From positions 64,765-128,764 of the forward strand of contig CAVYYV010000003.1 of the NCBI GenBank assembly GCA_963772815.1: DNA of 64,000 bases, in the 5' to 3' direction. The notes beneath the pieces were generated by a model, which saw nothing but the letters and a program-made list of their open reading frames with translations, ran no database searches and was not told the DNA's origin. The position numbers were made by a program, and so were the translations under genes. Shown here piece by piece: positions 1,373 through 44,014 of this stretch (within the stretch, counting starts at the first letter, position 1; each line of letters starts with the position of its first letter). This DNA comes from an uncultured Acidimicrobiia bacterium. GTDB taxonomy: Bacteria > Actinomycetota > Acidimicrobiia > Spongiisociales > ZC4RG35.

Positions 1373-1443
1373 AGCCTCGTCGGCGGTGAACCCGCCCGGG
1401 GCGCTCGTTGAGCGTTTCGGGATCGACAACGGAGGAGCCGCGC

Positions 1444-4400
1444 ATGTCTGCTGCTGCGCACGGACCAACCGACCAATATCTCGCTGCCATCGTCTCCGGC
1501 AATCCCGTCGTCTACGACGGCGCCACCGGGACGAATCTCCAACGTCTCGAGCTGACGGCCGACGACTTCGGGGGGGAGAGCCTCGAGGGCTGCAACGAGA
1601 TGCTCAACATCACGCGGCCCGACGTGGTCGAGAAGCTCCATCGGAGCTTCTTCGAGGTGGGTGTGGACGTGGTGGAGACCAATACATTCGGAGCCTTCGC
1701 CATTCCCCTGGCCGAGTACGACTCGGCCGACCGCGCTTACGAAATCGCCGCGTCCGGAGCGGCCATCGCCCGCCAGGTCGCGGATTCGTTTTCAGCCTCC
1801 GACGGCCGTTCCCGCTGGGTGGCAGGGTCGATTGGGCCCGGCACCAAATTCCCCACCCTGGGACAGGTTCCGTACCGAACCCTTCGTGACGCCTACCAGG
1901 TCGAAGCGAATGGGCTGATCGACGGCGGAGTCGACCTGCTGATAATCGAGACCCAGTTCGACCTGCTGGGAGCCAAGGCCGCCATCCACGGAGCCCGCCG
2001 GGCCATGGAGAAGGGGGGCCGGGAGCTGCCCCTCCAGGTACAGGTGACCATCGAGCTCACCGGCCGGATGCTGCCCGGGACCGAAATCGGCGCCGCCCTG
2101 ATCGCTCTCGACGCTCTCGGCGTGGACGTGATCGGGCTCAACTGTGCCACCGGGCCGGAGGAGATGTACGAGGCAATCCGGCACCTCAGCCACCACTCAC
2201 GCCGCCCGCTGTCGTGCCTGCCCAATGCGGGCCTCCCGTCGGTGGTCGACGGTGCCATGCACTACGACCTCGGCCCCCAAGGCCTGGCCGAGCACCTTCA
2301 CCGATTCGTGACGGAATTCGGAGTGGGCGTGGTGGGCGGTTGCTGTGGCACCACCCCGGAGCATTTGTCGGCTGTGGTGAACCGTCTCGGCGGCGTACCG
2401 GTGGCCGAGCGCTCCCCCGACCACGACCCTTCGGCAACCTCGACCTATTCCGCCGTCCCCCTCGATCAAGACACCTCATTCCTGATCATCGGGGAGCGAA
2501 CCAACGCCAATGGATCCCGCGCCTTCAAACAGGCCCTGGTCTCGGGCGACATCGACACTTGCCTCGGGATCGGCGAGGAGCAGGTCGCCGAGTCGGCCCA
2601 CCTGGTCGACCTGTGCGTCGACTATGTGGGGCGGGACGGAGTCGCCGACATGACTACGCTCGCCTCCCGTTTCGCCACCGACATAACGGTCCCGGTCGTG
2701 TTGGACTCGACCGAGCCCGAGGTGATGGAGGCCGGCCTGGAGTGCCTGGGAGGGCGATCGGTACTCAACTCGGCCAATCTGGAAGACGGAGAGAGCCCCG
2801 GCTCCCGCTTCGACCGGGTCATCGGCCTCGCCCGCCTGCACGGCGCCGCCGTCATCTGCCTGCTCATCGACGAGAAAGGCCAGGCACGTACCACCGAATG
2901 GAAGATGGAGGTTGCGCGTCGCATCTATGAGTTGGCCGTGGGCCGATACGGTCTGGAGCCGTCCGACCTCATCTTTGACCCACTCACATTCCCTCTCAGC
3001 ACCGGCGGCGACGATCTCCGCGGCGACGGTCTGGCCACGATCGAGGCGATCCGGGGGATCAAGAAGGAGTTGCCGGGGGTGCGCACGGTCCTGGGCATCT
3101 CAAACGTGTCATTCGGCCTCAACCCGGCCACGCGTCGGGTGCTCAACTCGGTCTTCCTCCACGAGTGCCTGGAAGCAGGTCTGGACGCAGCCATCCTCCA
3201 CGCCGGCAAGCTCACCCCCCTCAACCAGATCGATTCCAACCACGTCGAGCTGTGCCTGGACCTGATCCACGACCGGCGACGGGAGGGCTACGACCCCCTC
3301 GAGGAGATCCTGGCCGCCTTCGCCGATGTCTCGGAGGCCAAGGCGCCCGGCGACGACCTGGACACTCTTCCCCTCCATGAACGGTTGGAGCGACGGATCG
3401 TGGATGGGAATCGGCGTGGCCTGGAAGACGACCTGGAGGCGGCGCTCGAGGAGGGGCTGTCCCCCCTGGACGTGATCAACCGCATCCTCCTGGACGGGAT
3501 GAAGACTGTGGGCGACCTCTTCGCCTCCGGGGACATGCAGCTCCCGTTCGTCCTCCGCTCTGCCGAGACCATGAAGGCGGCCGTCGGCTATCTGGAACCA
3601 CGAATGGAGAAGTCGGAGCAGTCCGCCAAGGGCTCGATAGTGCTCGCCACGGTCAAAGGCGACGTCCACGACATCGGCAAGAACCTGGTCGACATCATCC
3701 TCACCAACAACGGCTACACGGTCCACAATCTCGGCATCAAGGTCGGCATCGACGATCTCATCGCCCGATATGTCGAGGTGGGCGCCGACGCCATCGGGAT
3801 GAGTGGCCTGCTGGTCAAGTCGACTTTGGTAATGCGCGACAACCTCGATGAGCTTGCCCGCCGGGGCATGGGAGAGGTCCCGATCCTGCTCGGGGGCGCG
3901 GCGTTGACCCGCTCTTATGTTGAGGCCGACTTGCGCTCCCGCTATGGGGGGCCTCTGTTCTACGGCAAGGACGCCTTCGCCGGCTTGGCCGCCATGCAGG
4001 AAATCACGTCCGTCGAGCACCTGGAGGCTCCCCCGCCCCGTCCTTTGCGCACGTCCTCGTCGGCCCATCGGCCGGCTCCCGGCGATGAGGTGCCGACCCG
4101 AGCTCCCTCCGTGACGACCGACAACCCGATACCCACCCCTCCTTTCGTCGGAACCCGGGTGGTGAAGGGGCTGCCCATCGACGAGATCGCCGAGTTCCTG
4201 AACCTCACCGCGCTCTTCCGCAACCAATGGCAATACCGCCCCGAGGGTGGGGAGACGCACCCGGAGTTCCTGGAACGGCTCCGCCCCCTGCTGCGCGAGC
4301 AGCTCCGCCGGGCCCGAACCGACGACCTGCTCACTCCCCAGGTGGTCTACGGCTACTTGCCGGTCAACTCCGATGGTGACGAGCTCGTGGTGTGGGCCGA

Positions 4401-4956
4401 CGACTCCCGCCAGGGCGAGACGGCCCGGATGTCCTTCCCCCGCCAGCCTGAGGACCCTTGGCTTTGCATCTCCGACTTCTTCCGCCCGGTGGGCTCGCCC
4501 GATCCCGACTATGCCGCCTTCCACATCGTCACGATGGGCCCGAGGGTCAGCGAGCGAACCGCCCGCTATTTCGCCGAGAACAGATATCAGGATTACCTCC
4601 ACCTACACGGGCTCGGTGTGGAGATGGCCGAGGCTCTGGCCGAATACTGGCACCTGCGGATCCGCCAGGAGTGGGGCTTCGCCGACGAGGACGGCCCCAC
4701 CCTGACCGGCCTGTTCCGCCAGCAATACCGGGGCGGCCGCTACTCATGGGGCTACCCGGCCTGCCCTGACCTGCGAGACAACGAGACCGTGGCCCGACTC
4801 CTGGATGCCGGGCGGATCGGCCTGGAGGTGAGCCAGGAGACCGGCTACCAGTACCACCCCGAGCAGACCACATCCGCCATCATCTGCCACCACTCCCAGG
4901 CCAAGTACTTCATCGCCGTGGACCCGAGAGAGATCCGCCGTGCTGACGCGTCATGA
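1444..4956 (+). CDS. metH: cobalamin-dependent methionine synthase
   Basis: Homocysteine-binding, pterin-binding, B12-binding (DxHDIGK) and AdoMet-activation modules; GGAGGAG RBS before ATG 1444 (ORF track start 1408 is likely an extension). Confidence 0.95.
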   Translation: MSAAAHGPTDQYLAAIVSGNPVVYDGATGTNLQRLELTADDFGGESLEGCNEMLNITRPDVVEKLHRSFFEVGVDVVETNTFGAFAIPLAEYDSADRAYEIAASGAAIARQVADSFSASDGRSRWVAGSIGPGTKFPTLGQVPYRTLRDAYQVEANGLIDGGVDLLIIETQFDLLGAKAAIHGARRAMEKGGRELPLQVQVTIELTGRMLPGTEIGAALIALDALGVDVIGLNCATGPEEMYEAIRHLSHHSRRPLSCLPNAGLPSVVDGAMHYDLGPQGLAEHLHRFVTEFGVGVVGGCCGTTPEHLSAVVNRLGGVPVAERSPDHDPSATSTYSAVPLDQDTSFLIIGERTNANGSRAFKQALVSGDIDTCLGIGEEQVAESAHLVDLCVDYVGRDGVADMTTLASRFATDITVPVVLDSTEPEVMEAGLECLGGRSVLNSANLEDGESPGSRFDRVIGLARLHGAAVICLLIDEKGQARTTEWKMEVARRIYELAVGRYGLEPSDLIFDPLTFPLSTGGDDLRGDGLATIEAIRGIKKELPGVRTVLGISNVSFGLNPATRRVLNSVFLHECLEAGLDAAILHAGKLTPLNQIDSNHVELCLDLIHDRRREGYDPLEEILAAFADVSEAKAPGDDLDTLPLHERLERRIVDGNRRGLEDDLEAALEEGLSPLDVINRILLDGMKTVGDLFASGDMQLPFVLRSAETMKAAVGYLEPRMEKSEQSAKGSIVLATVKGDVHDIGKNLVDIILTNNGYTVHNLGIKVGIDDLIARYVEVGADAIGMSGLLVKSTLVMRDNLDELARRGMGEVPILLGGAALTRSYVEADLRSRYGGPLFYGKDAFAGLAAMQEITSVEHLEAPPPRPLRTSSSAHRPAPGDEVPTRAPSVTTDNPIPTPPFVGTRVVKGLPIDEIAEFLNLTALFRNQWQYRPEGGETHPEFLERLRPLLREQLRRARTDDLLTPQVVYGYLPVNSDGDELVVWADDSRQGETARMSFPRQPEDPWLCISDFFRPVGSPDPDYAAFHIVTMGPRVSERTARYFAENRYQDYLHLHGLGVEMAEALAEYWHLRIRQEWGFADEDGPTLTGLFRQQYRGGRYSWGYPACPDLRDNETVARLLDAGRIGLEVSQETGYQYHPEQTTSAIICHHSQAKYFIAVDPREIRRADAS

Positions 4957-5153
4957 GGGATGGCTGCGGCCAGCCGAGGTGAACCCGCCCGAGTTACCCG
5001 GCATGGATCACCTTGCCCCTGGCCGGATGGAATCCATGGGTGCCGCTCCCGTCACCGAAAAGGCCGTCTCCGCGTTCTTATCAGCAAAACGGGACCCTGT
5101 AGGGACCGTTTCGTAGGGGAGAACGCGAAGGGGGGCGAAGTAGACTGGATGCG

Positions 5154-5515
<362 letters not shown>

Positions 5516-5520
5516 AAAAC

Positions 5521-5550
5521 GTGGAGAGGCTCCTGAAGGAGCCTCTCCAC
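5521..5550 (+). terminator. perfect 13-bp stem / UGAA-loop hairpin just after rnpB, no U-tract
   Basis: GTGGAGAGGCTCC-TGAA-GGAGCCTCTCCAC. Confidence 0.4.
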
Positions 5551-5786
5551 CTGTAAGGGCGGACGGTTATATGGGAGCAGTCCCTCGTTCAAGACTGCAA
5601 CGATCAGCATCCCGTCTGAGCGGGCCAACCCTCACCCACGGTCGATGGGCAGCATGCAGGGACCTTCGGTTCGTCTTTAGAGTCCAAGGTCCCTATTTCG
5701 ACTCCTGCTGTCCTGTCAGCTTGACTCCTGCTGGCGTGCCAGCTTTGAATGCATGCAAGAAGACACGAGACAACCCGGAGGTCGAA

Positions 5787-6347
5787 ATGCGGACTCCAAA
5801 CTTCTATTGGCGTTCGATAACGTTACTCACGACTGTTTTCATGCTGGGGATGCTGCTCTCAGCGTGCAGCGGTCGAGAGGAACAGGTTGAGACGACGGCG
5901 GCTTCGAGTGTCAACGCGGATCTGACGGTTCAGGCAGACATAGTCCAGGGCTCGGCCAACATCCCCGAGGATCAGCGGGCCACTGCCGTCTGTGTGCTCA
6001 ACAGCCGATACCCGCGTAACGGTGAGGTCGTTTTTCGTGCCCGGATTACCGATCCTGTCACGGGTGAGGAACTCGACGATCAGGCCCTGGAGAGTGTGCA
6101 GGTGAAGCTGAGCGACGGCACGACGCTGGACATGAACTACGGAGGCCACCCTCACGACGACCCCGTCGACTTCTTCTGGGCCAAAGGTTGGGATATACCG
6201 GCCGACTACCCCACCGGCACCGTGGAATACGAGGTAGTCGCCACGGACCAGGACGGTCGCTCCGGGACCTTCTCCCAGTTCAACGTCCAGTCCTCACTGC
6301 TGACCGTGACCGACGAGGTTCTCGAGCCAATCGAGCAGAGCAGCTGA
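5787..6347 (+). CDS. lipoprotein, unknown function
   Basis: GGAGG RBS; signal peptide with lipobox LLSACSG; the ORF-track start 5445 overlaps rnpB and is rejected. Confidence 0.6.
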   Translation: MRTPNFYWRSITLLTTVFMLGMLLSACSGREEQVETTAASSVNADLTVQADIVQGSANIPEDQRATAVCVLNSRYPRNGEVVFRARITDPVTGEELDDQALESVQVKLSDGTTLDMNYGGHPHDDPVDFFWAKGWDIPADYPTGTVEYEVVATDQDGRSGTFSQFNVQSSLLTVTDEVLEPIEQSS

Positions 6348-7867
6348 TGCACCGACAGCATCGGCGAGTGCCGGCGCTGCTCTTGGCCGGCCTCGTGGCT
6401 GTCGCCGCTACGTCGTGCGCCGAGGCGGGCCAGACCGCGGGAGCCGATGGAGCGGCCGCGGCGGCCCCGAGCACCACCACGGCTGACTCGACTCCAGACA
6501 CCACCCAGCCGGTCGACATAACCGGGACTGTCTCTCTCGATCCGGCCAGCGGTCCGGAGGGAACCCAAGTCCAGTTGCACGGCGAGGGGCTGCCCGCTTC
6601 TCAGGCTCTGGAGCTGCGCTGGAGCACGGCCGACGGACACTGGCTCCTGGAGGGCGAGCGCAACGAGGAGTACCACGGTCGAGAGTACACCCTCGGCTCT
6701 CAGACGATGGCCACGGTTACAACCGATGCCGACGGGGCGCTCGACGCTTCGTTCACGGTTCCTGCCGGATTTGGGTTCGCCCACGATGTGACCCTGGTCG
6801 ACTCCTCCGGCGTGATCCGGAACAAAGCCCTCTTCGACGTCAGCCCCGAGGTGACGATTACGCCTTCATCGGGACCCGAGGGCACTCCCATCACCATCGA
6901 GGTGCGGGGGATGGGCTGGCAGACCCTGGAGAACAGCAGAACGCTTGTCTATGACAACAGCTTCGTGGGTTTCATGTCTGGCGTCACCACCCACGGCTAT
7001 GCGAAAGCGGTAATTCCGGCCGTCGGGGCGCCCGGCCCACACGCGATCCGGGTGCTGCGCGGCGCCTACACCTTCCCGTATCTCAATCCCCAGCAGTCAC
7101 CCCGGCCCGACATCCCTGTATTCGAGGAGACATTCACCTTGACCGACGGTGAGGCGGTTCAACCACCGGCGATCAGCGAACAGAACCCCCTAACTATCGA
7201 GAGAGCCGGCAATGACGCCGGCGGTGATGGTCCGCAACTCACGACCGACCTGGCTTCCGGTCCGGTAGAAACGGGAATCGAGCTACTCGGAGCCGGGTTC
7301 CAACCCGGCGCTGACGTCGATCTCGTGTGGTATCGGGTTGTGGGCAACCGGGTGAGCGGCCAGGGCTGGGATGAACAGAGCCTCCCACTCACCCAGGCCA
7401 CGGCCTCGGCGGACGGCTCGTTCTCGGTTCCGGTCGAGGTGCCCCACGACGTGGGCGGTGCCCATCGGATCGAAGCCCAAGTGGGCGGCGAAACGGTTTC
7501 CACGACCGAGTTCGCAATCACGCCCGCCGCCAGCTCTCTGACGCCCGCCTCCGGCCCGTCAGGGACGATGATGAAGATCAATCTCACCGGTGTCGGATGG
7601 ACGGAGACCGCCAACATCTACACGTTGGTCTATGACAACTCGTACATCGGGTACGCCTGCGGCTTCAACAGCCAGGGGGATGTGGAGATAACACTGCCGG
7701 CGACCGGCGAACCGGGTTGGCACTACATCGATCTCTACCCCGCCATCTACAAGGGCAAAGAGACGGCCGGACAGCAGCACTTCAGGACTCCACAGCTGAC
7801 ATACGAGCAGGACCACCCCGGCGAAGACCTCCCCGCCTTCCACTTCGCCTTCCACCTGGAGGGATGA
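6347..7867 (+). CDS. secreted lipoprotein with repeated IPT/TIG-like modules
   Basis: ATGA overlap with the upstream gene; lipobox ATSC; repeated ...P(A/S)SGPxGT...G(M/V)GW units (ITGTVSLDPASGPEGTQ / ITPSSGPEGTPITI / LTPASGPSGTMMKI). Confidence 0.6.
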   Translation: MHRQHRRVPALLLAGLVAVAATSCAEAGQTAGADGAAAAAPSTTTADSTPDTTQPVDITGTVSLDPASGPEGTQVQLHGEGLPASQALELRWSTADGHWLLEGERNEEYHGREYTLGSQTMATVTTDADGALDASFTVPAGFGFAHDVTLVDSSGVIRNKALFDVSPEVTITPSSGPEGTPITIEVRGMGWQTLENSRTLVYDNSFVGFMSGVTTHGYAKAVIPAVGAPGPHAIRVLRGAYTFPYLNPQQSPRPDIPVFEETFTLTDGEAVQPPAISEQNPLTIERAGNDAGGDGPQLTTDLASGPVETGIELLGAGFQPGADVDLVWYRVVGNRVSGQGWDEQSLPLTQATASADGSFSVPVEVPHDVGGAHRIEAQVGGETVSTTEFAITPAASSLTPASGPSGTMMKINLTGVGWTETANIYTLVYDNSYIGYACGFNSQGDVEITLPATGEPGWHYIDLYPAIYKGKETAGQQHFRTPQLTYEQDHPGEDLPAFHFAFHLEG

Positions 7868-15307: not shown

Positions 15308-17070
15308 AAGGCTGTTGAACAACTCGGGTTAGGGGGCCCTGAGTGTTGCTGCGTCACTGGCCATGGGCCTGGTTTCGGGTTCTGTCGGCGTCACGGGTGA
15401 CGTGATCTGCGATTCCAGCGGTTCTTGTCGCAGGGTGAGCTAGATGGTTCAGGCGGGATTGCTGGATTGGGTCAGCCGGTGAGGGCCCAGGTGGTGCCGT
15501 CGTGGTTGAGTCCGAGGTTGACGAGCCGTCTCAGGTTGATGGCGGCGACGCGGAGGGCGAGTTGGCCTCGGTTGGCTTCGACTCCCCGGTATCGGAGACG
15601 CCGGTGGTGTTTGCCGACCAGCCAGGCGATGGACCGTTCCACCATGGGCCGGAACTGTCGGTAGTCGTCGGTGAACTCGCCGGCTGCCCATGCTCGACGG
15701 GCAGCGACCAGCTCGGCGTCGTGTGTCGAGATATTTAGAACCCGTCCGCCTTTGGCGGTGGTGCATCGGCTTTGGAGGGGACAGCCGAGGCAGTGTTTTC
15801 CGAAACTGGCGGAGCCTTTGGCGGCGATGTGGACTGTGTGTCCTCCCGGGCAGGTGACGGTGCGGTTGTCGTGGTCGACACAGAAGTCGTCTCGGGTGAG
15901 CCCTCCTTCGATTCTGGGACGGGCCAGCGGGATGGGTTTGATCGCCAGGTCGTGTCCCGCCTCCCGGATCCGGGCTCTTGTTTCTCCCGACCCGTAGGCG
16001 GAGTCGGCCAGCACCTGAAGACCCGGTTCCTCACCTTCCAGCAGCTCCAATCCGGTGGGTCCGTCGCCGGCGTTGGCTGGGGTGAGCTGAGAGGCGGTGA
16101 CGATCCCTGTTTCAGGTTCGACCGCGACATGCGCCTTGTAGCCGTCCCGGTATTGGCTGGTCGACTTGTGCATATGACGGGCCTCAGGGTCGACCGTGGA
16201 GATCACCCCGTCCGCGACGGTGCCTTCGGTGATCCGCCAGGTGCCCTCAGTGTCGCCGGGTTCGACATCCTGGCCAGAAACCAACGCCAACAATCCCACC
16301 GCATCAGCCTGATCCTCGGTGAGATCGACTCCTTCCAACGCTGTGATCAGGGCCAGAGCATCGTTGACCAGGGCAGACACCAGAGCGGCCTTCGCTTCGG
16401 GGTCGTCCCAAGCGCACACCGGCTTGCCTGAAGTGTCGTAATCATGCGCCGACACCACCACTGCGGCGGCTTCGGGGATGAGACGACGCACCCGGCGGAT
16501 CTGAGATACCAGTTGGGTGACCGTGTCCTGGGTGGCCACCGCATCATCCAAAAGCGTCGAATCCAACGCCCTGCGACGTCTCCCCGCCAACACACCCGTC
16601 GCCTCCACCACCTCGGTGACCGTCTCACGGATCCGATCGGGACGCTCCGATCCGGCCAGCCGCTGCCGCCAATAGGTGAACACCGTGTAATGAGGACCCT
16701 CATCGTCGAGAGCCAGCCCACAGGCCACCTTCCAACGGATATCACAGCGGAGAGCATCAGCCGCCTCCCGATCCGACAGGCCCTCCAACTCCTTGAGGAT
16801 CATCGCCGAGGCCATCACATCCACCGGAATCGAGGGACGTCCCCGACCCGACGGAAACAAGTCCGAGAACATCACATCGGGAAACAGCTCAGCCCGATGG
16901 TCGGCCAAAAACGCATAGACCGACCCCTCCGAGACCAGCTGCCGACACAACGCCGCCGCATCCAACAACATCCGCTCCGGTCGAGAAGAACCCTGCATAC
17001 GCTACATTCTCCCAAACCACGCTCGCGATCGCGAGCACCAAATCAGCGATTAAATCAACAGCCTTCTAGG
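15304..17070 (-). mobile_element. IS1182-family insertion sequence (~1.77 kb) with 15-bp perfect terminal inverted repeats
   Basis: IRL CTAGAAGGCTGTTGA at 15304-15318; IRR TCAACAGCCTTCTAG at 17056-17070; a single intact 508-aa transposase ORF inside. Confidence 0.8.
15472..16998 (-). CDS. IS1182-family (IS5 superfamily) DDE transposase
   Basis: N-terminal DUF772-like region (LKELEGLSDREAADALRCDIRWKVACGL) and C-terminal DDE region (CPGGHTV...GKHCLGCPLQSRCTTAKGGRVLNISTHDAEL...RSIAWL...RYRGVEANRGQLALRVAAINLRRL). Confidence 0.9.
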   Translation of the reverse strand: MQGSSRPERMLLDAAALCRQLVSEGSVYAFLADHRAELFPDVMFSDLFPSGRGRPSIPVDVMASAMILKELEGLSDREAADALRCDIRWKVACGLALDDEGPHYTVFTYWRQRLAGSERPDRIRETVTEVVEATGVLAGRRRRALDSTLLDDAVATQDTVTQLVSQIRRVRRLIPEAAAVVVSAHDYDTSGKPVCAWDDPEAKAALVSALVNDALALITALEGVDLTEDQADAVGLLALVSGQDVEPGDTEGTWRITEGTVADGVISTVDPEARHMHKSTSQYRDGYKAHVAVEPETGIVTASQLTPANAGDGPTGLELLEGEEPGLQVLADSAYGSGETRARIREAGHDLAIKPIPLARPRIEGGLTRDDFCVDHDNRTVTCPGGHTVHIAAKGSASFGKHCLGCPLQSRCTTAKGGRVLNISTHDAELVAARRAWAAGEFTDDYRQFRPMVERSIAWLVGKHHRRLRYRGVEANRGQLALRVAAINLRRLVNLGLNHDGTTWALTG

Positions 17071-39343: not shown

Positions 39344-40507
39344 ATGGGCGAACATACGTTCGGGTGGGGAGAGGACCGGGAACCGGCTAACGGCCCCGAG
39401 CTGATGGAAGCGATCCGGGCCGCCACCTCCGAGTTGGACCGGTCGAGCCTGGACCGCCTGGAACGCATCGCCGCCCTGGATACCTCGGAGGGGTTCCGTT
39501 ACGACGGATACACGTCGGTTTCTGCGTTTCTAGCTCACCGGTGTGGGATGGGAGTGCGAGAAGCCAACCGCAGCGTATTCCTGGCTCGAGCGTTGGAACA
39601 GATGGCCTATTCGGTCAAACTGGTCCGCACCGGCGATTTGTCCCTATCTCAGTTCGAGATCCTGGCTCATGCCCAATCTCAGCATCCCCAAGGGTTCGCC
39701 ACCGACGAAACCACCCTGGCCCAATCGGTAGTCGACCTGTCCTGGACAGACACCAAAAGGGCCGTCACCTACTGGTGTTGCCTGCACGAAGAACCCCAAG
39801 ACCTTTCGGACCCCGAACCGTCCCGGATACATCTCTCCAAAACATTCGGGGCTCGAGGGCGCCTGGACGGGGACCTGACACCCGAAGACCACAACCTCCT
39901 AGAAACCGCCCTCGAGCCGCTCATCTCAGAGATCGTCAACACCACCCCCAAAGACCAGTTGCCGACCCGCTCAATACTCAGAGCCATGGCCCTAACCGAA
40001 CTGATCCGCCGCCACCTCGCTTCTAACCAGTCTCCGTCCGATCACGGCAACCGTCCCCAAGTCAACGTCATCATCCCCTGGGACACCCTCATCGGTAACA
40101 ACGATCAGCCCGCCGAATTCACCGACGGGACCCTCATATCAGCCGCCGACGCCCGCCGACTCGCCTGCGACGCTTCGGTGTGTCGCCTCCTGATAGGTCC
40201 CAACTCTGAGATCCTCGACCTGGGTAGGAGCCGACGCACCGTCATCCGCCGCCCAATGGCGGGCCCTGGTCATCCGAGACCGCCACTGCCGCTTCCCCGG
40301 CTGCCGCCGGCCCGCTTCCTGGTGCGACGCCCACCACACCCTGTCATGGGACCAACTCGGGAACACCGACCTGTGCGACATGTGCCTCCTCTGCCGAAAC
40401 CACCACACCCTGATTCACCGAGACGGCTGGACCATCACCAACCAAGGCAACGGCCAACTCGTCTTCACCCGACCCGACACAACCACCCTCCCCAACGCAC
40501 CCCCATA
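39344..40507 (+). CDS. DUF222 + HNH endonuclease (13E12-repeat family) with an apparent frameshift near 40244
   Basis: DUF222 region in frame 1; HNH motif WRALVIRDRHCRFPGCRRPASWCDAHHTLSWDQLGNTDLCDMCLLCRNHHTLIHRDGW in frame 3 ending at TAG 40507. Confidence 0.7.
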
Positions 40508-40627
40508 GCAGAGGATTACGCCCCCAAGGCGCGACGAACTCCCTCCTGATTCGAACGAACCAATCGGTTCAGATTGCCGTTGAACCTCGCTCACCGTGCT
40601 CTACGGTGCCGGACCGTGGCTACCGAC

Positions 40628-40966
40628 ATGCTGAAGAGTCTTACCGGTGGATTTCGGCGTCCGTCGATCCGGGAACGACTCAGGATCGATGACTCGTTCG
40701 ACGACGGCCGGGTCGAGCGTCGCCCACCGCCCGCGCCTCGGCACCGGCCCGAGGCAGCCCCCGTGCTGGCCTTCTTCATCGAGTGCGCCTGTCCGATCGG
40801 ATTACGAGAGGCGTCGGTGGCAGGCGGTGGCCTGACCTCGCCCGCCGAGTTCCTGGACACCTATCACCTGACACACATCGAGTGTCAGACGTGTCATCGC
40901 TACTACCGCCTGGTGGGATACATCGACGAAAGCGGCGAGCAACACGGCGTCGAGAAGCACCGCTGA
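40628..40966 (+). CDS. small Cys-containing hypothetical protein
   Basis: ...FFIECACPIGL...HIECQTCHRYYRLVGY; possible metal-binding; start uncertain. Confidence 0.3.
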   Translation: MLKSLTGGFRRPSIRERLRIDDSFDDGRVERRPPPAPRHRPEAAPVLAFFIECACPIGLREASVAGGGLTSPAEFLDTYHLTHIECQTCHRYYRLVGYIDESGEQHGVEKHR

Positions 40967-40996: not shown

Positions 40997-41548
40997 ATGG
41001 CCTGGATCGAGACCATTCCCGAGGACAAATGGGAGGGAGAGCTGCGCGAGTTATACCCCAAGGTGTCAGATCTGGCTCAGGATCGGGTGGACAACATCAT
41101 GCAGATCCACTCACTCAATCATCGGGCGCTGGCCGCCCATCACAACCTCTACACGTCGGCCATGTCCGGGACGCCGGGCCTGCGCAAGGTTGATCGGGAG
41201 ATGATCGCGCTGGTGGTGAGCGGCATCAACGAATGCCACTACTGAATCGTCCACCATCGGCGCGGTCTGCGCCGGCTGCTCAAGAACGATGAGTTGCTCG
41301 ACGCCATCGAGAGCGACTGGCAGACGGCTGAGCTCGACCCCCGAAGGGATGCCATGCTCGCCTACGCCGAGAAGCTGACCGTCAACCCCGCCCGAGTGAC
41401 TCAAGACGACATCGAGGGCCTCCGGGCGGTCGGATTCTCCGACCGGGACATCCTCGACATCTGCGAGGTAGCCGCCTACTACGCCTACGTCAACCGCATC
41501 GCCGACGGACTCGGAGTGAAGTTGGAGACCTGGCTATCGCCTGATTGA
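40997..41548 (+). CDS. AhpD/carboxymuconolactone-decarboxylase-family (peroxidase-related) protein with in-frame TGA (41243-41245) at the second Cys of CxxC(x3)H; probable selenoprotein (CxxU)
   Basis: ...LVVSGINECHY[TGA]IVHHRRGLRRL...: family consensus N.CHYC..SH; reading continues in-frame to TGA... through LSPD (84 more residues of conserved CMD-family sequence). Confidence 0.7.
41258..41274 (+). promoter_or_regulatory. bacterial SECIS-like hairpin (apical stem-loop) downstream of the in-frame UGA
   Basis: CGGCGC-GGUCU-GCGCCG; loop GGUCU occupies nt +22 to +26 from the U of UGA, identical in spacing and loop to E. coli fdhF (UGA CACGGCCCAUCGGUUGCA GGUCU GCACC) and with a similar CCAUCGG lower stem. 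Confidence 0.65.
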
Positions 41549-41556
41549 CTCCTACG

Positions 41557-42069
41557 TCAACGACGAGACAGGACTCTGTAGGCGAGACCCACCCCGGCAC
41601 CGAAGGCCAGATGTGCGGAGAGATCCTTCCACAGCGTTTCGATGTCGTACTCCCAGATCGGCTTGTAGAGGCCGGCCGGCGCCAGGGTCGCATACGAGGT
41701 GAGCCATGCCCCCGCCCCGGTCAATAGACCAGTCAGCACTCTCTGTCGCTGCATGGAGCCGTTGACGACCCCATGCAGCGCACCCCAACCCAGCCCGGTT
41801 CCCCAGTGAACGACGTTGTTCATTGGGCCCGCCGTAGCCGGGTCGAGTTTGACATCAAACAGACCCTCAAGCACCCGCTTGCCCACTTGCGCAGGCGCCG
41901 GTGCGTTGTCGTACCCCTCGAGGCCGGCCGAGAACTCCCACTCGGCGAAAGTCTGGTCGCCGCCACCCGACCGATAGCGCGTGTACCAGACCAGGTCCAT
42001 GGCTACGACCCCGGCCACTCCGGCCAGGGCCCCCTTGAAGATTGTCCCTAGTGGGGTCCCATTCCTCAT
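41557..42069 (-). CDS. DUF1440-like hypothetical membrane protein
   Basis: MRNGTPLGTIFKGALAGVAGVVAMD...; family assignment tentative. Confidence 0.45.
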   Translation of the reverse strand: MRNGTPLGTIFKGALAGVAGVVAMDLVWYTRYRSGGGDQTFAEWEFSAGLEGYDNAPAPAQVGKRVLEGLFDVKLDPATAGPMNNVVHWGTGLGWGALHGVVNGSMQRQRVLTGLLTGAGAWLTSYATLAPAGLYKPIWEYDIETLWKDLSAHLAFGAGVGLAYRVLSRR

Positions 42070-42177
42070 CGGCCCAACCCTACCGCTATAGGTGTGCCAA
42101 CAGATTCGGGCCGCCCGGGGCCAAGCCGGACCATCGTCGTGCACGCGGCACGGTTCAGGTCATAGTCTCCGTCAGAC

Positions 42178-42693
42178 ATGGCTCCGTACTTCTTCCACAC
42201 CCAATGGATCCTCGAGGCGCCGATGCGGGAGGTCTTCGACGCTCTGACGAGCCCCGACGACCTTCTGTCATGGTGGCCGGCCATCCGTAGAGCCCGTCTC
42301 ATGGACCGAGGGGACGAGCGAGGCGTCGGTGCCCGAGCTTCCTACTCGATCCAGAGCCCTCTCCTCTACCGCGTCCACTTCGAGCTGACCTCGACTGACC
42401 TCGATCCCCCTCGACGGATCCGAGGATTAGCCACCGGCGACCTGGTCGGAACGAGTGACTCGATCCTCGAAGAAGGGGGCGCTGCGACCACAGTCCACTT
42501 TCACTGGTATGTGTCAACCACGAAACGCTGGATGAATCTGATGACGCCCGTTGCCAGGCCGCTCTTCATCTGGGCCCACGACCGCGTCATGAAACAAGGT
42601 TGCGCGGCTCTGGCCCGACACCTCGACATCCGAGCCGTATCTGCAACGACGAACCTCATCGACCGACCGATGCCATCCCCCGGCCCCGACTGA
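42178..42693 (+). CDS. SRPBCC (polyketide cyclase/dehydrase-like) family protein
   Basis: LEAPMREVFDALTSPDDLLSWWP... signature. Confidence 0.6.
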   Translation: MAPYFFHTQWILEAPMREVFDALTSPDDLLSWWPAIRRARLMDRGDERGVGARASYSIQSPLLYRVHFELTSTDLDPPRRIRGLATGDLVGTSDSILEEGGAATTVHFHWYVSTTKRWMNLMTPVARPLFIWAHDRVMKQGCAALARHLDIRAVSATTNLIDRPMPSPGPD

Positions 42694-42742: not shown

Positions 42743-44014
42743 GTGTCGGCTGGGCGAGACTCCGATCTCTGGAAGCGCTTCATAGAACTGGGGTCGAGTC
42801 CATCCGATACAGACCAGCAGAAGGCGTACAAGTCGACACACGTCTTGATGTCGGCCGTGACTGCAGCTGTCGTGTTGCTGTGGTCGGTCGTCTACCTGGT
42901 TCTCGGTCTTGGCCTTTCGGCCGCCATTCCGCTCGTCTACGCCTCGCTCACCCTCCTCGGGCTAGTCGTGGTCGCCCGGACCAAGCGAATCAGGCTGTTC
43001 CGCGCTTCACAGATGACAATGTGGCTCACGTTCCCCTTCCTGCTCCAGTGGAGCGTTGGCGGCTTCGTGAACGGCAGCGGCGTCGGCATATGGGCGGTAG
43101 GGGCGCCACTCTTGGCTTCCCTGATCGGAGCCGTGCCCGGCCCGTGGTTCGTGGGCTTCATCGGCCTGTCGATCGTGTCCGGCCTGATAGACAGCTTGGT
43201 GGCGGTCTCAGCTCCGCCGATTCCACCAGGAGTGGTCACCACCATGTTCGTCCTCAACTTCCTCGGCGTGGCATTCGTGATCTTCGTGTCCCTGCGCTAC
43301 TTCGTCCGCGAGCGTGAGCGCACCCTCCACTCACTCGAATTAGAGCAGGAGAAATCGGAGAGTTTGCTTCTCAACATCCTGCCCGAGGAGGTGGCAACCA
43401 GGCTGAAGGCGGGTGAAGCCGTGATCGCCGACAGAATCGAAGACGTGACGATCCTGTTCGCCGACCTGGTCGGGTCCACACCGTTGTCAGAGCGCCTCAG
43501 CCCCGATGAGCTCGTCCGGTTCCTGAACGAGATATTCACGCCCTTCGACGACCTCGCCGACCGGCTAGGCCTGGAGAAGATCAAGATCATCGGTGATGCC
43601 TACATGGTGGTGGGCGGGTTGCCCACGCCGAGGCCGGACCACGCCGAGGTTGTGGCGGACATGGCCCTGGCTATGCGTGAGGAGCTCAGGAAGCATCCAC
43701 TCGATGGATTCGGCCCCCTCCAGATGCGTTACGGGATCCACACGGGAACCGTGGTTGCCGGGGTGATCGGCAAACGAAAGTTCAGCTACGACCTCTATGG
43801 GGACGCGGTCAACACCGCTTCCCGGATGGAGTCCCAGGGCATCCCCGACGAAATCCAGGTGAGCGAAGAGGTGTATCTGGAGCTTCGGGACGACTACGTG
43901 CTCGAACCGCGGGGGCCGGTCGATATCAAGGGCAAGGGCATCATGAACACCTACCTCTTGAAGGAGACGCGGCATCCTGTCTCGCAGGAAAGTGAACGCC
44001 TCGGCGGGCATTAA
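42743..44014 (+). CDS. membrane-anchored class III adenylate/guanylate cyclase
   Basis: Six N-terminal TM helices; catalytic domain ILFADLVGSTPLSE...KIKIIGDAYMVVGGLP...GIHTGTVVAGVIG...YDLYGDAVNTASRMES. Confidence 0.85.
   Translation: MSAGRDSDLWKRFIELGSSPSDTDQQKAYKSTHVLMSAVTAAVVLLWSVVYLVLGLGLSAAIPLVYASLTLLGLVVVARTKRIRLFRASQMTMWLTFPFLLQWSVGGFVNGSGVGIWAVGAPLLASLIGAVPGPWFVGFIGLSIVSGLIDSLVAVSAPPIPPGVVTTMFVLNFLGVAFVIFVSLRYFVRERERTLHSLELEQEKSESLLLNILPEEVATRLKAGEAVIADRIEDVTILFADLVGSTPLSERLSPDELVRFLNEIFTPFDDLADRLGLEKIKIIGDAYMVVGGLPTPRPDHAEVVADMALAMREELRKHPLDGFGPLQMRYGIHTGTVVAGVIGKRKFSYDLYGDAVNTASRMESQGIPDEIQVSEEVYLELRDDYVLEPRGPVDIKGKGIMNTYLLKETRHPVSQESERLGGH

Follow-up and report, generated by a model that had tools for sequence, protein, structure and literature searches.

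The plus-strand gene at 40997-41548 of the 64-kb stretch of contig CAVYYV010000003.1 analysed here (the window) very probably encodes a selenoprotein of the AhpD-like family. In this reading, the UGA at 41243-41245 directs insertion of selenocysteine (Sec) at codon 83, dependent on SelB and on a selenocysteine insertion sequence (SECIS), giving a C80-x-x-U83 selenol/thiol centre. The TGA is conserved among orthologues, one reading frame runs across it, a co-varying hairpin follows it, and a relative with the same gene carries selA and selB. A first-pass annotation of this DNA had proposed Sec insertion at this codon, and that interpretation is supported by the reading frame, by the conservation of the TGA, and by a co-varying hairpin with the properties of a bacterial SECIS.

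Translation of the region gave a frame that runs from an ATG at 40997 to a stop codon at 41546-41548 and contains one in-frame TGA, at 41243-41245. The list of open reading frames (ORFs) for the window divides this span into two entries, 40997-41245 (82 amino acids) and 41294-41548 (84 amino acids, with a TTG start), and we reproduced both the coordinates and the frame of these two ORFs split by a single TGA, as the first-pass annotation had described them. Around the TGA the translation reads SGINECHY, then the stop, then IVHHRRGLRRLL. All 100 codons 3' of the TGA are open, and the GC content of third codon positions (GC3) is 0.79 before the TGA and 0.84 after it. The features of the gene, with their conservation in the orthologues described below, are as follows.

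40997-41548, plus strand: coding sequence of the predicted AhpD-like (TIGR01926, peroxidase-related) selenoprotein, 183 codons plus a stop, with Sec at codon 83
41198-41200, plus strand: codon for Glu68, the proposed proton-relay Glu (equivalent to Glu118 of Mycobacterium tuberculosis AhpD and Glu36 of PA0269), assigned by spacing
41234-41236, plus strand: codon for Cys80, first residue of CxxU (equivalent to Cys130 of M. tuberculosis AhpD), Cys in 34 of 34 orthologues
41243-41245, plus strand: in-frame UGA, predicted U83, aligned to the second Cys of CxxC, TGA in 35 of 35 orthologues
41255-41257, plus strand: codon for His87, the proposed proton-relay His (equivalent to His137 of M. tuberculosis AhpD), four codons from the TGA, His in 34 of 34 orthologues
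41258-41274, plus strand: candidate SECIS upper stem-loop, a 6-bp CGGCGC/GCGCCG stem with the loop GGUCU (containing G23 and U24), identified by folding and covariation

For family searches we used the 183-residue product with Cys placed at the TGA position. This product scored 146.6 bits on TIGR01926, whose curated cutoff is 81.8, with residues 3-175 aligned to positions 2-174 of the 178-position profile, and it matched the Pfam CMD model PF02627 at 50.5 bits against 23. A single family model thus covers residues on both sides of the TGA, indicating one protein, and the earlier claim that the two ORFs form one AhpD/CMD-family protein on read-through is borne out by a TIGR01926 match that runs from end to end across the TGA. 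The closest solved structures were 3c1l, 6k40, 2oyo and 2pfx (E = 1e-31 to 5e-27). The alignments to the first three of these are continuous across the TGA and show a Cys at that column, the query segment nechyCivhh being aligned with nhcyyCltah and nrcvyCavsh.

We compared the CxxU motif with the AhpD proton relay, which consists of E118/C130/H132/C133/H137 in M. tuberculosis AhpD (MtAhpD) and of E36/C48/Y50/C51/H55 in PA0269 (PMC3141380). MtAhpD (1gu9/1knc) was a weak match to the window protein (E = 0.0076), aligned over one 40-residue stretch. Residues 58-97 of the window protein match 108-147 of MtAhpD, ranges of the same length, which makes C80 equivalent to C130, U83 to C133, H87 to H137 and E68 to E118; the C/U/H equivalence is drawn from these ranges and not from a residue-level alignment. 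Residues E68/C80/Y82/U83/H87 accordingly have the canonical AhpD spacing, with the Tyr variant seen in PA0269. Glu68 precedes the first Cys by 12 residues, as in the E118/C130 and E36/C48 pairs, and the orthologue translations contain the RE motif. The spacing C(i), U(i+3), H(i+7), previously likened to that of Cys130/Cys133/His137, therefore holds on the equal-length ranges, and the placement of the TGA at the second Cys of a CxxC motif agrees with the Cys found at this column in Cys homologues and solved structures. Cys133 is the nucleophilic residue of MtAhpD, which would put Sec in the attacking position with Cys80 as its resolving partner.

Orthologues were collected by a genome scan with one genome per species, which returned 37 loci, nearly all of them in Acidimicrobiia or Actinomycetota metagenome-assembled genomes (MAGs). 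Identity to the window protein ranged from 46 to 73% and was mostly 59-73%. At all 35 loci that reach the Sec column the codon is an in-frame TGA, never TAA or TAG, and the protein is conserved on either side of it. Conservation among the 35 orthologues begins at residue 1 of the N-terminus (MAWIET...). For 34 orthologues, mean column entropy at codon positions 1, 2 and 3 was 0.62, 0.49 and 1.26 upstream of the TGA and 0.57, 0.54 and 1.32 downstream of it, and these matching patterns indicate that one frame and one coding constraint apply to both halves.

A separate protein search identified 576 homologues at E <= 1e-10, of which we inspected 25. Full-length Cys forms, exemplified by P0007-P0009 (54-55% identity), have the motif C-x-Y-C-LTHH, and Cys also occupies the Sec column in P0028 and P0111. 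Several entries presented as full-length (P0002-P0005, P0013, P0015 and P0019) have Trp at this column. The DNA of P0019, which comes from a marine TARA/JGI metagenome and is ~30% GC, has TGA at the Sec column despite the Trp in the database, and its translation under code 11 fails to reproduce the database protein. Since the DNA carries TGA, the Trp of P0019 is a translation artefact, and the other Trp entries are likely to be the same; they look like code-4-type translations of TGA.

One further orthologue, 68% identical to the window protein (L042, 2501-3049 of the locus; GCA_024275815.1, contig JAJRYI010000263.1), has TTA (Leu) at the Sec column. This TTA is one base from TGA, and the hairpin downstream of it, CGUCGC-GGUCU-GCGACG, is intact. 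It stems either from a mistake in sequencing or assembly or from very recent inactivation of the catalytic residue.

The hairpin of the window gene lies directly after the conserved His. Numbered from the U of the UGA, nucleotides 16-21 (CGGCGC) pair with nucleotides 27-32 (GCGCCG) around the loop G22-G23-U24-C25-U26, and the element falls within the codons for R-R-G-L-R-R. Folded as a hairpin only, it has a minimum free energy (MFE) of -10.7 kcal/mol over 17 nt, -12.2 kcal/mol over 19 nt and -12.3 kcal/mol over 24 nt. The bacterial SECIS (bSECIS) consensus describes an apical loop of 3-9 nt carried by 4-16 bp of upper stem, an MFE <= -7.5 kcal/mol, a G among the first two loop positions that is usually followed by G or U, and a spacing of 16-37 nt between UGA and loop (PMC13188914). 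The window hairpin falls within the consensus on all four counts. Its loop is 5 nt and its stem 6 bp (7 bp counting U15-G33); G22, G23, C25 and U26 never vary, and 34 of 35 sequences have U24; and the spacing from UGA to loop is 18 nt (positions 4-21) in all 35.

The combination of a TGA, GGTCT at +22 and a stem of 6 bp or more has a single occurrence on the two strands of the window, against an expectation of 0.013 per dinucleotide shuffle, with 4 of 300 shuffles containing one. A looser TGA plus GGTCT hairpin pattern was essentially confined to this gene in ~516 kb of loci plus the window, the exceptions being out-of-frame TGAs inside the same element and one unrelated occurrence in a short ORF (L018, 12155, minus strand). 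Searches of the window and of five loci with the Rfam SECIS families gave no match at the gathering threshold.

Several lines of evidence from the orthologues indicate that the hairpin is under selection. In a 35-sequence ungapped alignment, 89% of stem cells are paired, compared with at most 55.5% in slid controls. The covariation score is 0.234 versus 0.071 in shuffles, a value reached by none of 500 shuffles and compared with at most 0.092 in slid controls. Pair 18-30, which joins the synonymous third positions of two Arg codons, is GC in 14 sequences, CG in 13, GU in 3, UA in 2 and UG in 2, and is unpaired in 1. RNAalifold independently returned the same hairpin, with 17-21 paired to 27-31 as a 5-bp consensus core. 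Codon choice within the element is similarly restricted. The Gly at +7 is encoded by GGT in 33 of 34 orthologues, while at other sites in these genes ~20% of Gly codons are GGT, and the other invariant Gly columns have mixed codons. Synonymous sites are frozen at Arg+6 (CGC in 34 of 34) and at Leu+8 (CTG in 34 of 34) as well.

The strongest case for selection is a marine orthologue from a 30%-GC genome (L043/L044), which keeps the TGA and has a GGUC loop at nucleotides 22-25. Its stem is CGGAAAA/UUUUCCG, closed by A21-U26, and its peptide reads HHGKGLFR as against HHRRGLRR, so that the RNA structure is retained though nucleotides and amino acids differ.

Comparison with the fdhF gene of Escherichia coli K-12 places the loop precisely. 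In fdhF the TGA is codon 140 and GGTCT lies at offset 22, exactly as in the window, and the claim that the loop occupies +22 to +26 as in fdhF is correct for both sequences. Both hairpins are intragenic and immediately 3' of the UGA, with G23 and U24 at the same distance from it. The two differ in that the fdhF loop is a GGUC tetraloop with A-U as its closing pair, whereas the window has a pentaloop closed by C-G; the marine orthologue L043, unlike the window, has the fdhF-like A-U-closed GGUC tetraloop. They differ also below the upper stem. The fdhF SECIS has a bulged U17, required in E. coli, and a long lower helix; the window hairpin has no such bulge, and its lower extension is weak and poorly conserved, being limited to U15-G33, which is paired in 17 of 35 orthologues. 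Of the hairpin drawn in the first-pass annotation, the 6-bp stem with its GGUCU loop at 41258-41274 therefore stands, while the separate lower stem CCAUCGG does not. That segment overlaps the 6-bp stem, its CGG being the first half of the stem, and it is out of register with fdhF, lying at nucleotides 12-18 here and at 10-16 in fdhF.

Genes of the Sec machinery, which the first-pass annotation had predicted to lie outside the window, were found next to an orthologue in a relative. In the Actinomycetota MAG locus L029, which has a TGA orthologue 59% identical to the window gene, selA lies at 3955-5304 (TIGR00474, 496 bits versus a cutoff of 268) and selB at 5304-7217 (TIGR00475, 323 bits versus a cutoff of 242), on the strand of the orthologue and 1.2 kb upstream of it. 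These two genes of the machinery are thus in the same genome as a TGA orthologue. Neither selD nor a tRNA-Sec was found within the 19 kb of L029 examined. SelA homologues of at least 69% identity are numerous in Actinomycetota MAGs; as the sources are named to phylum only, these matches speak for the phylum and not for Acidimicrobiia in particular.

The order of genes at L029 3955-8984, all on one strand, is selA, selB, a bacterial topoisomerase IB gene and the TGA-containing AhpD-like gene. We considered a dedicated sel-ahpD operon here and dropped the idea, given that the topoisomerase IB gene lies between selB and the orthologue. The only tRNA-SeC observed (anticodon TCA) was at L036 13826-13919, in a Desulfovibrio MAG locus that entered the set by a distant match of 31%. 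FtsH and chemotaxis receptors surround it, and no sel genes are among its neighbours.

A number of observations weigh against Sec insertion or narrow the support for it. The 58-nt stretch folds no better than shuffles (z = -0.53), and support for the hairpin accordingly comes from the comparison of orthologues and not from thermodynamics. That comparison has limits of its own, in that the covariation comes mainly from one pair, the sequences are mutually related, and the hairpin is entangled with the conserved peptide RRGLRR. Moreover, the nearest Cys forms retain RRGLRR and most of the hairpin. With respect to machinery, tblastn with E. coli SelA, SelB and SelD queries (E <= 1e-3) gave no match in the 64-kb window, no sel gene was recognised among its 20 largest ORFs (NCBIfam), and no tRNA-Sec was found in it; tRNA-Sec and selD were likewise not seen in the Acidimicrobiia loci, each of which spans at most 20 kb.

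The nearest Cys forms are L038 (3001-3552) and L039 (3001-3582), both from European Nucleotide Archive entry ERZ25039492 and 54-55% identical to the window protein. The L038 hairpin is intact with G:U pairs, and that of L039 has its closing pair broken by a G-G clash. The presence of the hairpin alone consequently cannot separate Sec from Cys forms, and Cys homologues, which we had considered as a negative control for the hairpin, proved non-discriminating because these two still carry most of it; the argument for the hairpin was therefore built on synonymous-site covariation and on the AT-rich orthologue. The hairpins of L038 and L039 may be fossil SECIS elements that outlasted a recent Sec-to-Cys change, or may follow from constraint on the peptide; two sequences are too few to decide between these causes.

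The lack of sel genes and tRNA-Sec in the window bears most directly on the possibility that the UGA mostly or only terminates, the Sec machinery having been lost or never present, which would leave a fragment of 82 residues as the product of a selenoprotein gene that has recently become an inactive relic. Selenoprotein losses are documented in Actinobacteria (PMC1794560), and the TTA at the Sec column of L042 indicates that disruption of this codon occurs in assemblies. We nevertheless consider a relic improbable. The downstream half of the gene is intact, with its 100 open codons, its GC3 of 0.84 and a perfect hairpin, and the protein is 59-73% identical, over its full length, to most orthologues. 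The window is also a small part of the genome, so not finding sel genes there carries little weight, and the relative L029 has both selA and selB.

There is still less to recommend two separate small genes, an N-terminal one of 82 amino acids and a C-terminal one of 84-100 amino acids with its own start past the TGA. This is how the sequence tends to appear in databases, where hundreds of ~100-residue 'peroxidase-related enzyme' entries (e.g. among P0022-P0120) begin one codon past the TGA, and a TTG lies in frame at 41294 of the window. Yet the first codon past the TGA is ATG or GTG in only 7 of 34 orthologues, the others having ATC, CTC, CTG, ACG, ATA and so on, which means that a conserved start for a separate C-terminal gene is absent. 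A boundary at this point would fall in mid-domain, inside the CxxC motif, where TIGR01926 and the solved structures match continuously, and a true gene boundary would not need a stop that is always TGA and never TAA or TAG. The first-pass annotation had named a genuine two-gene split in relatives as an outcome that would count against it; no such split was seen, as coding constraint spans the TGA and the start is unconserved.

Finally, Trp at this column in some database entries and the existence of Cys homologues such as P0007-P0009 might suggest that TGC or TGT was misread as TGA in sequencing or assembly, or that the TGA is read without selenium (by near-cognate Trp or Cys insertion or under a reassigned code), explanations we regard as highly implausible given TGA in 35 of 35 independent assemblies, the TGA in the DNA behind the P0019 Trp entry, a SECIS-type hairpin and a relative's selA and selB that point to Sec specifically, and the fact that most GC3-rich ORFs of the window terminate with TGA, its usual stop there, so that the codon is not globally reassigned.

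Sec insertion at codon 83, the reading we favour, suggests the following mechanism. As the ribosome nears the UGA, SelB carrying Sec-tRNA(Sec) would bind the mRNA hairpin 13 nt downstream and, competing with release factor 2, bring Sec to the A site. Translation of 40997-41548 would then yield a single 183-residue thiol/selenol oxidoreductase, an AhpD-like 'peroxidase-related' protein with the CMD fold, in which the C80-x-x-U83 centre would sit within an AhpD proton relay made up of E68, C80, Y82, U83 and H87. The selenol would replace the Cys equivalent to MtAhpD Cys133, and Cys80 would form the resolving selenenylsulfide. Homology suggests that the protein probably reduces peroxides or the oxidised form of a peroxiredoxin-type partner. 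The insertion of Sec by this organism, the binding of SelB, the enzymatic activity and the partner are all predictions from sequence.

Selenoproteins of this type have been described before. AhpD-like (COG2128) CxxU selenoproteins were reported from the Sargasso Sea metagenome in 2005 (27 sequences; PMC1088965), and 'AhpD-like 1' was the fourth most abundant family in the Global Ocean Sampling (GOS) data, where it counted 299 sequences alongside 902 Cys homologues (PMC2398784). A 2026 review lists the family as 'AhpD-like protein, TIGR01926, CxxU' (PMC13188914), it can be browsed in BSepDB (PMC13326102), and Actinobacteria are a recognised selenoprotein-rich phylum (PMC1794560). The window gene shares with this family a TIGR01926 match above the cutoff, Sec at the second Cys, a SECIS right after the UGA and widespread Cys homologues. 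It differs in that it lies on a high-GC Acidimicrobiia-like chromosome, not in marine reads, and in that the hairpin of its clade is very uniform, GC-rich and encoded by RRGLRR. The AhpD-like selenoprotein literature cited here does not discuss the Acidimicrobiia clade or its uniform hairpin.

With respect to proteins of known structure, the window protein belongs to the same fold family as MtAhpD (1knc/1gu9) and PA0269 (2o4d) and has an identically spaced proton relay of five residues; those proteins are Cys-based, whereas the window protein is predicted to have Sec in place of the second Cys. The similarity to MtAhpD is marginal. Closer matches are the uncharacterised 'peroxidase-related' proteins 3c1l, 2oyo and 2pfx, and also 6k40, which its depositors call AhpD.

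The window as a whole looks like part of an actinobacterial chromosome, to judge from its predicted products, which include an actinobacterial-type QcrB, several F420-dependent oxidoreductases, OtsA, Zwf and an RpoD-like sigma factor. The genes that adjoin the selenoprotein candidate, at 40574-40966 (plus strand) and 41557-42144 (minus strand), matched no NCBIfam or Pfam model, and neither occurs close to any orthologue; the product of the former has a C-terminal C-x-x-C-H motif (IECQTCHRYY). Further downstream are an SRPBCC protein at 42178-42693 and an adenylate-cyclase-like neighbour at 42743-44014. When eight neighbouring window proteins were looked for around the orthologues, the sole match was to a generic ABC ATPase, and in the absence of synteny the context offers no functional clue. 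No gene for an AhpC-type partner is adjacent in the window, where the AhpD-like gene stands alone.

Other features of the window were recorded in passing. Two genes upstream, a DUF222 ORF at 39344-40549 ends in ~100 residues of Pro/Arg-rich low-complexity sequence and looks like a DUF222/HNH-type gene frameshifted near its 3' end. A mobile element, an IS1182-family transposase, lies at 15472-17001 on the minus strand (331.8 bits versus a cutoff of 270). A SAM riboswitch (RF00162, 67.6 bits) at 1281-1373 is directly 5' of an ORF of 1188 amino acids at 1390-4956 for MetH, the B12-dependent methionine synthase, and a full-length bacterial RNase P RNA of class A occupies 5155-5518 (291 bits).

The window gene adds a member to an established selenoprotein family whose motif and mechanism are already known, and nothing about it departs from the established selenoprotein model. 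It is best annotated as a single selenoprotein gene of 183 codons that carries a translation exception at codon 83, and it provides a well-supported extra example of a SECIS with its loop at the fdhF position. By the same token, the ~100-residue halves and the Trp entries in public protein sets amount to systematic mis-annotation of a selenoprotein family.

A more tentative proposal, which we think possible though rather unlikely, is that, in this Acidimicrobiia/Actinomycetota clade, the need for a SECIS with a GGUCU loop dictated the peptide that follows the active site (HH-RRGLRR at high GC, HH-GKGLFR at 30% GC), and that L038, L039 and L042 are recent conversions from Sec that keep a fossil SECIS. 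More distant Cys forms have H-G-A-A-(V/L)-R at this point. If the proposal is true, these abundant orthologues with their uniform structure would offer a clean natural system in which to date conversions from Sec to Cys and to measure how an intragenic RNA signal constrains protein sequence. As part of the same tentative proposal, the AhpD-like selenoprotein might be a main reason these aerobic actinobacteria retain the Sec machinery.

For the source organism, an Acidimicrobiia-like actinobacterium, the finding makes it probable that it is a selenium user.

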